A stretch of 64,000 bases of DNA from an uncultured Chloroflexia bacterium (GCA_963838115.1 CAWIPU010000004.1:394153-458152); one strand, 5' to 3'; counted from the stretch's first letter, positions 19,455-28,413 are shown. The notes: a model not told the origin generated them from the sequence alone. Translations and numbers: made by a program.

Positions 19455-22400
19455 TTGAATGGAGCTCGCCTCATGGCATCCTTGTCCACGTCTCCCGCCC
19501 GCGACGCTCGCGCCCGCTTGCGCATCGCCGGCGATCGCGAGATCGCCATCTACCGCCTCGATGCGGTCTGCGACCAGCTGGACCGGCTGCCCTTCACCGT
19601 GAAGGTGCTGCTGGAGAACGTGCTGCGCAACAGCGCCTCCGGGGGTGCCAGTGCCGCGGACGTGTCTGCGCTGGCGACGTGGCAGCCGGGTGGCGAGAGC
19701 GACATCGAGATCCCGTTCATGCCGGGCCGCGTGCTCCTGCAGGACTTCACCGGTGTCCCCGCCGTGGTCGACCTGGCGGCCATGCGCGATGCCATGGCGG
19801 CGCTGGGTGGCGACCCGGCGCGCATCAACCCGCTGGTGCCGGCCAGCCTCGTCATCGACCACAGCGTGCAGGTCGACCGCTTCGGCTCTTCGGAAGCCTT
19901 CGCCTTCAACGTCGACCGCGAGTACGAGCGCAATGGCGAGCGCTACCAGCTGCTGCGCTGGGCCCAGACGGCCCTGCGCGACTTCCGGGTCGTGCCACCG
20001 GGCACCGGCATCGTCCACCAGGTCAACCTCGAGTTCCTCGGGGACGTGGTCAGCCTGCGTGAGGATGCCGACGGCGAGATCGTGGCCTTCCCCGACACGC
20101 TGGTGGGCACCGACTCGCACACCACCATGATCAGCGGCCTGGGCATCCTGGGCTACGGCGTCGGCGGCATCGAGGCAGAGGCGGTCCTGCTGGGCCAGCC
20201 GCTCTACCAACCGCTGCCCAAGGTGGTCGGGGTCCGGCTCCATGGCGCACTGCCACAAGGCAGTACCGCCACAGACCTGGTGCTGGTCGTCAGCCAGCTC
20301 CTGCGCGCCCATGGGGTGGTGGGCAAGTTCGTCGAGTTCTACGGAGACGGTCTGGCTTCCTTGGCCCTGGCCGACCGCGCCACGCTGGCCAACATGGCGC
20401 CCGAGTACGGCGCCACCACCGGCATCTTCCCCATCGACGAGGAGACACTGGCTTACCTGCGGCTGACCGGGCGCGATGAGCGCGTGCCGCTCGTGGAGGC
20501 CTACGCCAAGGAGCAGGGCCTGTGGCGGCTGCCAGGAGCCACGCCGTCGTTCGACGAGATGCTGGAGCTTGACCTGGCCAGCGTCGCTCCCAGCGTGGCC
20601 GGTCCGCGCCGGCCCCAGGATCGCATCGCGCTGTCGGACTTGCGTGACGCGTTCCAGCGTGACTTCCCGCCGCCCGGCAACGACGGATCGGGCTATCCCG
20701 GGGTGAGCGTCGGGGGCGACGGCGCCTCGGCGGAGCTGGCTTCCGGTTCGGCCCTGGTGGCTTCCGGCTCGGTCGCCATCGCCGCCATCACCAGCTGCAC
20801 CAACACCTCCAACCCCAGCGTGATGGTCGGGGCCGGCCTACTGGCGCGCAACGCCGTCGAGCGCGGCCTGTTTGTCGGACCCACCGTCAAGACCAGCCTG
20901 GCACCTGGTTCACGCGCCGTGACCGAGTACCTGCGCGGTGCCGGTCTCCTGCCCGCGCTCGAAGCGCTCGGCTTCGATGTCGTGGGCTACGGCTGCACCA
21001 CCTGCATCGGCAACAGTGGCCCGCTCGACGAGGGCATCGCGAGCGCCATCGAGGAGCATGATCTGGTGGTGGCCGCGGTCCTCTCGGGCAACCGCAACTT
21101 CGAGGGCCGCATCCATCCGCTGGTCAAGGCCTCCTATCTGGCCTCACCGCCGCTGGTGGTGGCCTTCGCCCTCGCCGGCAGGGTCGACATCGACTTGGAG
21201 CACCAGCCGCTGGGCACCGGTTCCGATGGAGCGCCGGTCTACCTGGCCGACATCTGGCCCTCGGCCGATGAGATCCGCACGGCCATCGGTGGCGCCGTGA
21301 CGCCGGAGCTGTTCCGCAGCACTTACGCCAGCGTCTTCGAGGGCGACGAGCGGTGGCGCGCACTGCCGGTCCCAGCCGGCGATCGATACGCATGGGACCC
21401 TGGCTCCAGCTATATCGCGCTGCCTCCGTTCTTCGAGGGCCTGACACCGGAGCCCCTGCCCATCGCCGGCATCAGCGGCGCCCGGGTGCTCGCGGTATTG
21501 GGCAATTCGGTCACCACCGACCATATCTCCCCGGCCGGTGTCATCCCGGCCTGGAGCCCCGCCGGCCAATGGCTCCAGGAGCACGGTGTCTCACCCTCTG
21601 AGTTCAACTCCTTCGGTGCCCGACGCGGCCACCACGAGGTGATGATGCGCGGCACCTTCGGCAACATCCGCCTCAAGAACGCGCTCGCCGAACAGGAGGG
21701 CCCCTACACCACGTTCCAGCCGAGTGGCGAGCCGATGTTCATCTACGAGGCAGCCATGCGCTATGCCGAGGAGGCGACACCACTGCTCATCCTGGCAGGC
21801 TCCGAGTACGGCAGCGGCAGCTCCCGCGATTGGGCCGCCAAGGGGACGCGCCTCCTTGGGGTTCGGGCCGTGCTGGCGGAGTCCTTCGAGCGCATCCATC
21901 GCTCCAACCTGGTGGGCATGGGCGTGTTGCCGTTGCAGTACCTCCCTGGCCAGAGCGCCGCGACCTTGGGGCTGACCGGGCAGGAGGCCTTCGACGTCCT
22001 GGGTCTCGACGATGAGCTGGCACCTCGTTCCAGGGTCACCATCGTGGCCCAAGGCGGGTCTGGCGATGTCCGCTTCGAGGCCATCGTCCGCCTCGACGGC
22101 GGTATCGAGGTCGAGTACTACCGCAACGGCGGCATCCTGCCAACGGTGCTGCGGCGCCTGGCGGCGGATAGCCTCCGGGCCGACCGACTCGGCTCTCAGC
22201 CCTCGGCTGGGCGCGAACCGAGCGTTTGGCGCGCCACCGGGCCCACCACCGTCACCGACGGCGCCACGTCCCGCGCCACCACCGCGCCCGCGCCGACGAC
22301 TGCGTCTGCGCCCACCCGGACACCGGGCAGGATGATGCAACCCGTTCCCAGGGTCGCCCCGTCCTCGACCACCACGCCACCGCTGATCCGGACGCCAGGG

Positions 22401-22565
22401 TGCACGGTGACCAGATCGCCGATGGTGGCATCGTGGCCAACGGTGCAATCGAGGTTGATCACGCTGTGGCGCCCGACCTCGATGTTGGTGGTCAGGTACA
22501 CGCCGCCGGCGATGATGCTGCCCTCACCGATCCGTACGTCGCTCCCGATCGAAGCACGAGGATGA
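19455..22565 (+). CDS. acnA: aconitate hydratase A. As assembled there is no in-frame stop after the conserved C-terminus (…YYRNGGILPTVLRRLAA ends near 22166), giving about 130 extra codons that run antisense through the neighbouring gene
   Basis: Conserved aconitase domains throughout. A TAG at 22169..22171 sits one frame off, 25 nt before the convergent gene's stop. Confidence 0.85.
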   Translation: MNGARLMASLSTSPARDARARLRIAGDREIAIYRLDAVCDQLDRLPFTVKVLLENVLRNSASGGASAADVSALATWQPGGESDIEIPFMPGRVLLQDFTGVPAVVDLAAMRDAMAALGGDPARINPLVPASLVIDHSVQVDRFGSSEAFAFNVDREYERNGERYQLLRWAQTALRDFRVVPPGTGIVHQVNLEFLGDVVSLREDADGEIVAFPDTLVGTDSHTTMISGLGILGYGVGGIEAEAVLLGQPLYQPLPKVVGVRLHGALPQGSTATDLVLVVSQLLRAHGVVGKFVEFYGDGLASLALADRATLANMAPEYGATTGIFPIDEETLAYLRLTGRDERVPLVEAYAKEQGLWRLPGATPSFDEMLELDLASVAPSVAGPRRPQDRIALSDLRDAFQRDFPPPGNDGSGYPGVSVGGDGASAELASGSALVASGSVAIAAITSCTNTSNPSVMVGAGLLARNAVERGLFVGPTVKTSLAPGSRAVTEYLRGAGLLPALEALGFDVVGYGCTTCIGNSGPLDEGIASAIEEHDLVVAAVLSGNRNFEGRIHPLVKASYLASPPLVVAFALAGRVDIDLEHQPLGTGSDGAPVYLADIWPSADEIRTAIGGAVTPELFRSTYASVFEGDERWRALPVPAGDRYAWDPGSSYIALPPFFEGLTPEPLPIAGISGARVLAVLGNSVTTDHISPAGVIPAWSPAGQWLQEHGVSPSEFNSFGARRGHHEVMMRGTFGNIRLKNALAEQEGPYTTFQPSGEPMFIYEAAMRYAEEATPLLILAGSEYGSGSSRDWAAKGTRLLGVRAVLAESFERIHRSNLVGMGVLPLQYLPGQSAATLGLTGQEAFDVLGLDDELAPRSRVTIVAQGGSGDVRFEAIVRLDGGIEVEYYRNGGILPTVLRRLAADSLRADRLGSQPSAGREPSVWRATGPTTVTDGATSRATTAPAPTTASAPTRTPGRMMQPVPRVAPSSTTTPPLIRTPGCTVTRSPMVASWPTVQSRLITLWRPTSMLVVRYTPPAMMLPSPIRTSLPIEARG

Positions 22566-27668: not shown

Positions 27669-27925
27669 ATGGTGATGGTTGAACAGGACGTCAGAGAGTT
27701 CGTCATCGAGACGTTCTATGTGAGCGCGATGCCGAACTCAGCGATGACATCTCACTCATCGATAGTGGCATCGTCGACTCGACCGGGATGATGGACATCA
27801 TCCTGTTCCTCGAGAGCCACTACACCATCTCCATCGAGGATCATGAGACGACGCCGGAAAACCTGGAGACGATCAGCCGCATCGCTTCATTCGTGGCTCG
27901 AAAGCAGGCGGCTGCGACCGCGTGA
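27669..27925 (+). pseudogene. small phosphopantetheine carrier protein (ACP/PCP-like, about 85 aa) with an interrupted reading frame (shift near 27723-27728)
   Basis: AAGGAGA RBS and ATG at 27669. Frame 0 reads MVMVEQDVREFVIETFYVS and then hits a stop at 27789. The carrier motif …DAELSDDISLIDSGIVDSTGMMDIILFLESHYTISIEDHETTPENLETISRIASFV… continues in the +2 frame to 27925. Confidence 0.65.
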
Positions 27926-28413
27926 ACGGACCGTCCGGGGCGACGACGGGGGCCAGCGACGGGACCGCGACCGAGGCGAGTGACGGGGCGCCCGGCATGG
28001 TCCTGGATCACGTCGGCATCGCGGTGCGTTCGATCGAGGCGGCGACCGAACAGTGGCGAACCGTCTTCGGCTACCAGCCGGCCACCGCGACCGTGGTCAA
28101 CCAGGCACAGAAGGTCCGCGTGCGTTTCCTTGAGAAAGCGGGATCGCTGCCGGTGAAGCTCATCGAGCCGACCGACGAGTCCTCACCTATCCATGCCATG
28201 GCGCAACGCGGCGGCGGCCTTCACCACCTCTGCTTCCGCTGCGATTCGGTCGACGCCGAAGTCGCTCGCCTAACTGCCGCAGGGCTGCGTGTCCTCGCGG
28301 CGCCATATCCGGGCGAGGCGTTCGAGGGCGAGAGGATCGCCTTCGTGTATGCCGGCGCTGGCCTGAACGTCGAGCTGATCGACACGTTGAAGCGGGCAGC
28401 ACGCCTGCGCTGA
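27922..28413 (+). CDS. VOC-family protein (glyoxalase/methylmalonyl-CoA epimerase-like)
   Basis: MVLDHVGIAV…LHHLCF… metal-binding pattern typical of the methylmalonyl-CoA epimerase/VOC fold. GTG start coupled (GTGA) to the carrier gene stop; an alternative ATG lies at 27997. Confidence 0.6.
   Translation: MNGPSGATTGASDGTATEASDGAPGMVLDHVGIAVRSIEAATEQWRTVFGYQPATATVVNQAQKVRVRFLEKAGSLPVKLIEPTDESSPIHAMAQRGGGLHHLCFRCDSVDAEVARLTAAGLRVLAAPYPGEAFEGERIAFVYAGAGLNVELIDTLKRAARLR

Follow-up and report, generated by a model that had tools for sequence, protein, structure and literature searches.

What do relatives of NAD synthetase and asparagine synthetase do when their genes lie beside those for a carrier protein and an adenylating ligase? 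The question arises from a 64,000-nt stretch of DNA from an uncultured Chloroflexia bacterium (GCA_963838115.1, CAWIPU010000004.1:394153-458152), which we call the window. Within 5.4 kb of the window, four gene families are contiguous: a NadE-like protein, an AsnB-like amidotransferase, a small carrier protein, and a ligase. They are part of a six-gene cassette at 22196-28413, which also encodes a PglD-type acyltransferase and a VOC-superfamily protein. A preliminary description of this DNA had placed all six genes and assigned them to families; when we listed the open reading frames (ORFs) and searched them against profiles from Pfam and NCBIfam, with frame-broken genes scored as frame-repaired proteins, both the positions and the families held. 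The closest relatives of the window are metagenome-assembled genomes (MAGs) of Candidatus Limnocylindrales (Chloroflexota), and one of these encodes the nearest relative of the NadE-like protein (93% identity); a look-up of the exact NadE-like sequence gave no record. We suggest, at about an even chance of being right, that the window holds a Limnocylindrales-like (Chloroflexota) copy of a conserved, horizontally spread module that makes an amide-bearing acyl group for a glycan.

When we scanned one genome for each species, more than 560 species gave matches, and we analyzed the 80 best loci. These loci come from Chloroflexota, Myxococcota, Acidobacteriota, Eisenbacteria, Bacteroidota, Ignavibacteriota, Chlorobiaceae, Gemmatimonadota, and Beta- and Gammaproteobacteria, or at least eight phyla. 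The NadE-like protein has thousands of homologues, and the 120 best of them share 67% identity or more with it; across phyla, identity is 60-71%. In 70 of the 75 loci with enough sequence to show it, the NadE-like gene is followed immediately, on the same strand, by AsnB. Among the 54 loci with ample flanking sequence, 51 contain the ligase and 47 contain the carrier, and both are present in 47. (A hidden Markov model of the carrier family detected it in 64 of 83 loci.) Three apparent fusions of NadE to other sequences (P0117, P0111, and P0071) were merely due to over-extended start-codon calls. Thus, the NadE-AsnB block is clearly syntenic in other genomes, and the proposal that these genes form one functional cassette, which is not a standard pathway for NAD, asparagine, or fatty acids, is supported.

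The arrangement of the module varies. In the window, in other Chloroflexota, and in Anaeromyxobacter, the ligase is divergent from NadE-AsnB-carrier (layout A). In layout B, the order is NadE-AsnB-ligase-carrier, with or without a HemK-like methyltransferase between the ligase and the carrier; beyond the carrier, there are often genes for a weakly SGNH-like protein and for a beta-helix acyltransferase that resembles CysE/EpsC. In layout C, which is found in Acidobacteriota, NadE-AsnB is accompanied by glycosyltransferases, an ATP-grasp enzyme, and a CMP-sugar synthetase, with no carrier nearby. Most of the neighborhoods that we examined are polysaccharide gene clusters. In Anaeromyxobacter, the neighbors are Wzx, Wza, EpsX, WbaP, and glycosyltransferases. 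A MAG from Chloroflexota has a PglF-like dehydratase next to the module, along with GlmS/GlmM, glycosyltransferases, and Wzx; a gammaproteobacterial MAG has WcaJ and the EpsA regulator; and Azospirillum has a polysaccharide deacetylase, a GNAT protein, and glycosyltransferases.

The preliminary description does not mention it, but the core had already been noticed in Sinorhizobium meliloti in 2009. On the megaplasmid pSymB, the annotated neighbors are asnB, an acyl carrier protein (ACP), an adenylate-forming enzyme, and nadE, which form the operon asnB-smb20651-smb20650-nadE1. All four proteins from the window are reciprocal matches to this set (55% identity for NadE1, 48% for AsnB, 39% for the carrier, and 37% for the ligase, SMb20650). 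The same four families form one transcription unit on one strand in S. meliloti, whereas in the window the ligase is divergent from the other three. The S. meliloti operon also lacks a PglD-type acyltransferase, is not embedded in a glycan locus, and has a nearby VOC gene that is not homologous to ours. The 2009 study reportedly detected C12:0 and C18:0 acyl forms of SMb20651 in E. coli. SMb20651 is an experimentally validated ACP whose holo form is made by AcpS; the ligase gene smb20650 is co-transcribed with it; and co-expression of SMb20650 in E. coli yields acylated SMb20651 (Ramos-Vega et al. 2009, Microbiology 155:257, PMID 19118366, as summarized in PMC7232532). PMC7232532 itself shows that SMb20650 cannot replace FadD. 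Nevertheless, a 2017 paper stated that the function of SMb20651 still needed investigation, and in the literature of 2017 and 2020 the four-gene core had no assigned product. The comparison to S. meliloti therefore names the module but does not explain it.

Do the proteins in the window have the features that such a module would need? The small ORF had been described as a carrier protein. Its frame-repaired product (84 amino acids) falls just short of the gathering cutoff for PF00550 (19.9 versus 20.8 bits), but it matches ACP models from NCBIfam (E = 2e-17), and its best match in the Protein Data Bank (PDB) is a peptidyl carrier protein (2my5, E = 7e-11). The serine of its DSTG motif aligns to the attachment serine of carrier proteins of solved structure; in a related chain, 2my6, this position is an alanine. 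SMb20651, the validated ACP, has the same DSTG motif (E = 6e-21). These results support the identification as a carrier protein. Given the conserved serine, an intact form of this carrier may be phosphopantetheinylated and acylated, as biochemical work found for SMb20651. We considered assigning the carrier to the OlsH/I proteins of ornithine lipid synthesis, because its best curated match in NCBIfam is an ornithine-lipid ACP family (NF052616, 63 bits), but we dropped this assignment since the match is below the cutoff.

The repaired ligase (528 amino acids) matches PF00501 (E = 8e-72) and PF13193. Among NCBIfam models, it scores best against NF004837 (315 bits) and TIGR03098 (303 bits) but reaches neither cutoff. 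AsnB matches TIGR01536 (532 bits) and has an unbroken N-terminal Met-Cys and an unbroken PP-loop (SGGLDSS); it also has a long C-terminal extension, which is typical of the AsnB proteins that are associated with exopolysaccharides.

The NadE-like protein belongs to the NadE family by both sequence and fold: it scores 488 bits against NF002048 (cutoff, 313 bits), matches PF02540, and contains the PP-loop motif SGGxDS and a conserved FxKxGDGxxD motif. An AlphaFold (AF2) model (predicted local distance difference test score, 84.7) has the NadE fold, and Foldseek aligned it to the NAD synthetases of Pyrococcus horikoshii (2e18) and Helicobacter pylori (1xng) and to the nicotinamide mononucleotide (NMN) synthetase of Francisella (3fiu) with template modeling scores of ~0.8. 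However, it is only 20-27% identical to these proteins. Between two blocks that align to canonical NadE, it contains a family-specific insertion of ~55 amino acids, which is predicted to form a small beta-sheet. A further difference from canonical NadE is that its gene, in accessory loci, has a fixed place beside AsnB. The NMN synthetase of Francisella shows that the NadE family can change its carboxylate substrate.

The other two genes of the cassette had been described as integral members, but they are lineage-specific accessories of Chloroflexota that lie outside of the conserved core. Homologues of the PglD-type protein (at least 200 bits) adjoin the core in just four loci, all from Chloroflexota, and homologues of the VOC protein (at least 100 bits) are found in 6 of the 80 loci, 5 of them from Chloroflexota. 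The PglD-type protein does belong to its family (TIGR03570, 168.1 bits versus a cutoff of 160.8, with both the PglD_N and Hexapep domains) and is 95.6% identical to an intact protein of 230 amino acids in a sister genome. Its gene begins either at a GTG at 22969, which overlaps the ligase's stop codon as GTGA, or at an ATG further downstream; both the N-terminal extension and the overlap are conserved in the sister genome. The VOC protein clearly belongs to its superfamily (PF13669, E = 3e-24), but it fails the cutoff for methylmalonyl-CoA epimerase (TIGR03081, 72.7 versus 114.95 bits).

Other lineages have other partners. The acyltransferase is of the PglD type in Chloroflexota, a CysE/EpsC-type protein together with an SGNH-like protein in 16-18 loci, and a GNAT protein in Azospirillum. 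These interchangeable acyltransferases fit a model in which an acyl donor is made and is then transferred to a glycan. The SGNH-like partner is a secreted protein of ~280 amino acids with a weak match to GDSL/SGNH (E ~1e-3) and no curated family (the pair is at 3257-4776 in locus L003 and at 15700-17176 in locus L034). In addition, a gene of the HemK/PrmC family, with the NPPY motif of enzymes like N5-glutamine methyltransferases, is near the module in 21 loci and on a Mesorhizobium plasmid. In Proteobacteria and Myxococcota it is repeatedly inserted between the ligase and the carrier (for example, at 14555-15376 in L034 and at 13908-14600 in L088). Because the known members of this family methylate the nitrogen of a glutamine amide, its recurrence fits a carboxamide product. 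The window has no gene of this type.

Given these families, the pathway might run as follows. The adenylating ligase would load a carboxylic acid, as a thioester, onto the dedicated carrier; there is experimental support for this step in the S. meliloti homologues. AsnB, using glutamine, and the NadE-family enzyme, using ammonia, would then convert one or more carboxylates of the intermediate to carboxamides: by the chemistry of their families, each would adenylate a carboxylate and swap the hydroxyl for an amino group. Finally, the genomic context suggests that a lineage-specific acyltransferase would move the acyl group to a glycan or to a sugar nucleotide. In the window, this would be the PglD/NeuD-type N-acyltransferase, helped by the epimerase-like VOC protein. 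We regard the VOC protein as a weak lead to the acid used in Chloroflexota, which might be held as a 2-substituted malonyl-type thioester. A bolder reading is that a NadE-family enzyme was recruited from NAD synthesis to work in obligate tandem with AsnB on an acid that is tethered to the carrier or borne by the glycan, which would yield a carboxamide decoration. We offer it tentatively, with doubt somewhat outweighing belief. For some lineages, a diamide or an N-methyl-carboxamide is conceivable.

The scheme of loading an acid, amidating it, and transferring it was put forward in the preliminary description. The comparative data support its outline, in that varied acyltransferases accompany the same core in polysaccharide loci, but they do not extend to the acid or to the target of amidation. 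We found no evidence that the acid is a small dicarboxylate, which had been among the suggestions, or that the amidotransferases act on a carrier-bound acyl group instead of a sugar carboxylate, the type of substrate that WbpS uses.

Several observations weigh against our reading. No member of the module has an assigned product. No carrier was found within ~10 kb in 19 of the 83 loci, including several from Acidobacteriota with full flanks, so the NadE-AsnB pair can apparently work without a carrier, which weakens the case for a carrier-bound substrate. In the lineage of the window, the cassette lies between aconitase and a dehydrogenase of the GSDH family, with no obvious glycan locus; the sister genome has GH130 and GT4 genes ~4-5 kb downstream, but these have no match in the window. 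The ligase is 31-37% identical to the S. meliloti type and has SYCYG instead of AFDYG at an A4-like motif, so its acid may differ, to judge from the sequences. And the characterized enzymes of the PglD family use acyl-CoA and are not known to use acyl-ACP.

Some known systems resemble parts of the module. The XrtA/PEP-CTERM exopolysaccharide set (Haft et al. 2006) has the same combination of an AMP-forming ligase (TIGR03098), a small carrier, and a long AsnB-type amidotransferase (TIGR03108), and some of the loci that are related to ours adjoin the XrtB/PEP-CTERM regulator EpsA. These models are among the best matches of the window's ligase and AsnB, but both scores are far below the cutoffs (303.5 versus 592.35 bits for the ligase and 425.8 versus 816.9 bits for AsnB). 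The set reportedly includes a pyridoxal phosphate-dependent decarboxylase and two hydrolases but no NadE-family gene. In the tetronate branch of Vibrio cholerae O1 (rfbKLMNO) and in the Dlt system, a dedicated carrier and an adenylating ligase prepare an acyl or aminoacyl group for a cell-surface polymer, and in the rfb set the last enzyme is a hexapeptide-repeat acyltransferase whose acceptor is an amino sugar; neither system is known to include amidotransferases, and their tailoring enzymes differ. WbpS and PGN_1234 are glutamine-dependent members of the AsnB family in glycan pathways that convert a carboxylate to a carboxamide, as is proposed for the AsnB of the window: deleting PGN_1234 abolishes glucuronamide, which identifies this AsnB homologue as a uronamide former (PMC7468200). 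But WbpS and PGN_1234 act alone on a sugar uronic acid, with no paired NadE-family enzyme, carrier, or ligase. The floc-forming clusters of Rubrivivax and Zoogloea carry AsnB (wbpS), and no NAD synthase, carrier, or ligase turned up in the Rubrivivax paper. Full-text literature searches that paired the names of these enzymes and of the carrier with terms for polysaccharides or PEP-CTERM turned up no paper on the module.

The uronamide formers suggest the main rival to our reading, which is that the module encodes two co-inherited decorations: NadE-like and AsnB would amidate sugar carboxylates (for example, uronic or ulosonic acids on nucleotide sugars), while the ligase, carrier, and acyltransferase would add a plain (fatty) acyl group. 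Besides the precedent of PGN_1234, layout C fits this idea, as there the NadE-AsnB pair is beside glycosyltransferases and a CMP-sugar synthetase without a nearby carrier. By our own reasoning, the natural dinucleotide carboxylate of NadE also resembles a nucleoside diphosphate-sugar acid in size and charge. The C12:0 and C18:0 forms of SMb20651 that were reportedly detected in E. coli would fit a plain fatty acyl group. Nevertheless, we think that two separate decorations are unlikely, although not markedly so. Of the 54 well-flanked loci, which represent many phyla, 47 have all four genes, and the reading frames frequently overlap or are coupled; S. meliloti has a stand-alone operon of the four genes with no glycan genes beside it; and the HemK-type gene between the ligase and the carrier ties amide chemistry to the carrier genes. 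That same lack of glycan genes next to the S. meliloti operon could point to an amide-containing lipid (a lipoamino acid or a fatty amide), for which the carrier would deliver a fatty acyl group while AsnB and NadE would amidate a head-group carboxylate. The carrier's below-cutoff match to the ornithine-lipid ACP family would fit with a lipid, as would the ligase's best matches, which are models of long-chain fatty-acid ligases, and the fatty-acyl forms of SMb20651 reported from E. coli. But most of the other loci are in polysaccharide clusters with flippases, glycosyltransferases, and export proteins, and the partner enzyme in the window has a PglD_N domain of the sugar-nucleotide type, so we consider a lipid product to be distinctly improbable.

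Alternatively, the genes might belong to ordinary nitrogen metabolism, as a housekeeping NAD synthetase and asparagine synthetase with incidental neighbors. Automated annotation does use these names, the PP-loop and the FxKxGDGxxD motif are conserved, and in one locus from Acidobacteriota the NadE-AsnB pair is preceded by a sigma-54 activator. The sequence data argue against a housekeeping role for the NadE-like gene: its taxonomic distribution is patchy; it is carried on megaplasmids and other plasmids, some of them mobilizable or conjugative; insertion sequence (IS) elements lie alongside; its high conservation across phyla (60-71% identity) points to horizontal spread; and its linkage to AsnB is fixed. 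The family-specific insertion in NadE, the linkage to a carrier and a ligase in most loci, and the exopolysaccharide type of C-terminal extension in AsnB also count against this explanation, which strikes us as very improbable. For S. meliloti, the name nadE1 points to the existence of a second nadE, and strains cured of pSymB can be obtained after engA and a tRNA gene have been moved to the chromosome.

We return to the amide-bearing acyl group and to whether this copy of the module could make it. The preliminary description had noticed frame breaks in the ligase and the carrier. Using a sister locus with 90% nucleotide identity as the reference (L001, from GCA_038251965.1), which has intact versions of all six genes, ordered as in the window and flanked by aconitase and the GSDH-family dehydrogenase, we identified both of these breaks and a third one, in AsnB, that had been overlooked. 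The ligase has an extra nucleotide at ~23819 (between amino acids 244 and 245), which is where tblastn splits the window's copy; the sister gene is intact and encodes 527 amino acids. AsnB lacks a nucleotide at ~27473 (amino acid 614 of ~671). Its uninterrupted ORF stops at 27519, which had been taken as the end of the gene, but the conserved tail (SNADNMAL...LSTxLLH) continues in another frame to a stop codon at 27654-27656, so with the frame break allowed for, the true end is 27656. The carrier lacks a nucleotide at ~27726 (amino acid 19), upstream of the DSTG attachment serine. Next to the cassette, losses of 1 nt and of 37 nt at ~22168, near the end of the aconitase gene (22160..22200, + strand), delete its stop codon. 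As a result, the aconitase ORF is 1036 amino acids in the window versus 892 in the sister locus, and the extra 144 amino acids run antisense into the 3' part of the PglD gene (whole affected region, 22160-22565).

None of these four lesions (22168, 23819, 27473, and 27726) is inside a long homopolymer run. Furthermore, 11 neighboring genes each give one unbroken alignment to the sister genome, and 10 other genes in the window, from the cell-division/cell-wall (dcw) cluster and an oligopeptide (Opp) transporter, have full-length domains. Thus, three of the six genes in the cassette are broken, as compared to none of the 21 other genes that we checked in the window (Fisher's exact test, P ~0.007), and for the genes checked, we can reject frameshifting by sequencing noise across the whole window. 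Relaxed selection on the cassette can also be rejected. When the window is compared with the sister genome, the ratio of nonsynonymous to synonymous divergence (dN/dS) is 0.16-0.22 in the cassette and 0.07-0.19 in the flanks, which implies that the cassette was under normal selection until very recently. The three indels in the cassette are either recent inactivating mutations or a local assembly error. A second relative (L086, on ENA contig_53983, 555 kb; its NadE is 87% identical) calls for caution about frame breaks in this lineage: nearly every gene in a 20-kb stretch is fragmented, including housekeeping genes, which is typical of an uncorrected long-read assembly, so we could not use this genome as a reference. 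Overall, the earlier suggestion that the cassette may be decaying is strengthened by the break in AsnB. With single-nucleotide indels in the ligase, AsnB, and the carrier, the frames that the module needs are not intact, and to judge from them, the cassette as sequenced cannot work.

The preliminary description had also noted low GC content in the carrier gene and at the 3' end of asnB and had taken this as a sign of horizontal acquisition. The dip is real, but it is confined to the carrier gene (GC of 0.56, versus 0.68 for the window and 0.65-0.69 for the other genes of the cassette). The carrier gene of the sister genome has a similar dip (0.59), so low GC is not evidence of recent acquisition, which we reject; it is characteristic of the carrier gene family. 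In the longer term, horizontal movement of the module is clear from its high identity across phyla, its carriage on plasmids, and the IS elements nearby. A tblastn search of plasmids, which is also what led us to the S. meliloti operon, located the NadE-like gene on 116 of them, from Sinorhizobium, Ensifer, Azospirillum, Shinella, and Mesorhizobium. Mobility is directly hinted at by the plasmid pMspAR07a of Mesorhizobium sp. AR07 (L088, 345 kb), where IS66 and IS481 transposases are a few kb upstream of the module.

The features of the cassette are listed in Table 1. As had been proposed, the two sets of genes diverge, across a spacer of 110 bp. A shared promoter region in this spacer had been proposed as well, but we did not detect any sigma-70-like promoter within it, so the proposal follows from the gene arrangement alone. 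The GTGA overlaps that had been reported between the ligase and PglD genes and between the carrier and VOC genes are both real (in the latter, the GTG start codon of the VOC gene overlaps the carrier's stop codon), and the sister genome shares the one between ligase and PglD. The spacer between NadE and AsnB, which had been given as 1 nt, is 3 nt.

Table 1. Genes and spacer of the cassette, with positions in the window
Feature	Position	Strand	Basis
PglD/NeuD/VioB-family left-handed beta-helix sugar N-acyltransferase	22196..22969	-	TIGR03570, PF17836 (PglD_N), PF00132 (Hexapep)
Adenylate-forming AMP-binding ligase, presumed acyl-carrier-protein ligase, frame-broken	22966..24550	-	PF00501, PF13193
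Spacer between divergent gene sets, 110 bp, GC 0.58, presumed promoter region	24551..24660	.	Gene arrangement
NadE-family PP-loop ATP pyrophosphatase, NadE1 type, intact	24661..25626	+	NF002048, PF02540
Glutamine-hydrolysing AsnB-family amidotransferase, frame-broken	25630..27656	+	TIGR01536
Dedicated 84-aa carrier protein, SMb20651 family, frame-broken	27669..27925	+	NCBIfam ACP models, PDB matches, SMb20651
VOC-superfamily protein, methylmalonyl-CoA-epimerase-like	27922..28413	+	PF13669 (Glyoxalase_4)

Beyond the cassette, synteny with the sister locus breaks at ~30600-31530 and again beyond ~32300 in the window: genes of the sister locus for TfoX, a protein of 94 amino acids, GH130, and GT4 have no tblastn match in the window. 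At 30788-31483 (- strand), between a META-domain gene and a short-chain dehydrogenase/reductase (SDR) gene, the window has a different ORF of 231 amino acids. The rest of what we noted in the window is ordinary housekeeping: genes for an oligopeptide ABC transporter at 5.6-8.9 kb, genes for ABC transporter permeases at 62-63.9 kb, and, at 42300-55700 (- strand), an intact dcw cluster whose products include a penicillin-binding transpeptidase, a Mur ligase, MurG, FtsW, and MraY.

Because it is broken as sequenced, the window's copy adds little by itself. Its divergent layout, with a PglD-type acyltransferase and a VOC protein, is a new architectural variant, from Chloroflexota, of an orphan module that had already been described. 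More broadly, the comparison with other genomes presents this module as a highly conserved unit that extends beyond rhizobia, is usually found inside exopolysaccharide loci, and has interchangeable acyltransferases and often a methyltransferase of the glutamine-amide type. Its breadth and its glycan context are apparently unreported in the literature that we searched, and the glycan context makes the role of SMb20651 directly testable, for which S. meliloti, Azospirillum, and Anaeromyxobacter are tractable hosts. If the product is a new amide-bearing substituent of glycans, then it would matter for the chemistry of biofilm and floc matrices, and hundreds of genes that are now labeled "NAD synthase" by automated annotation would be renamed. 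If the proposal of a carboxamide decoration is true, then it would be an unrecognized modification of exopolysaccharides that is made by hundreds of species in at least eight phyla.

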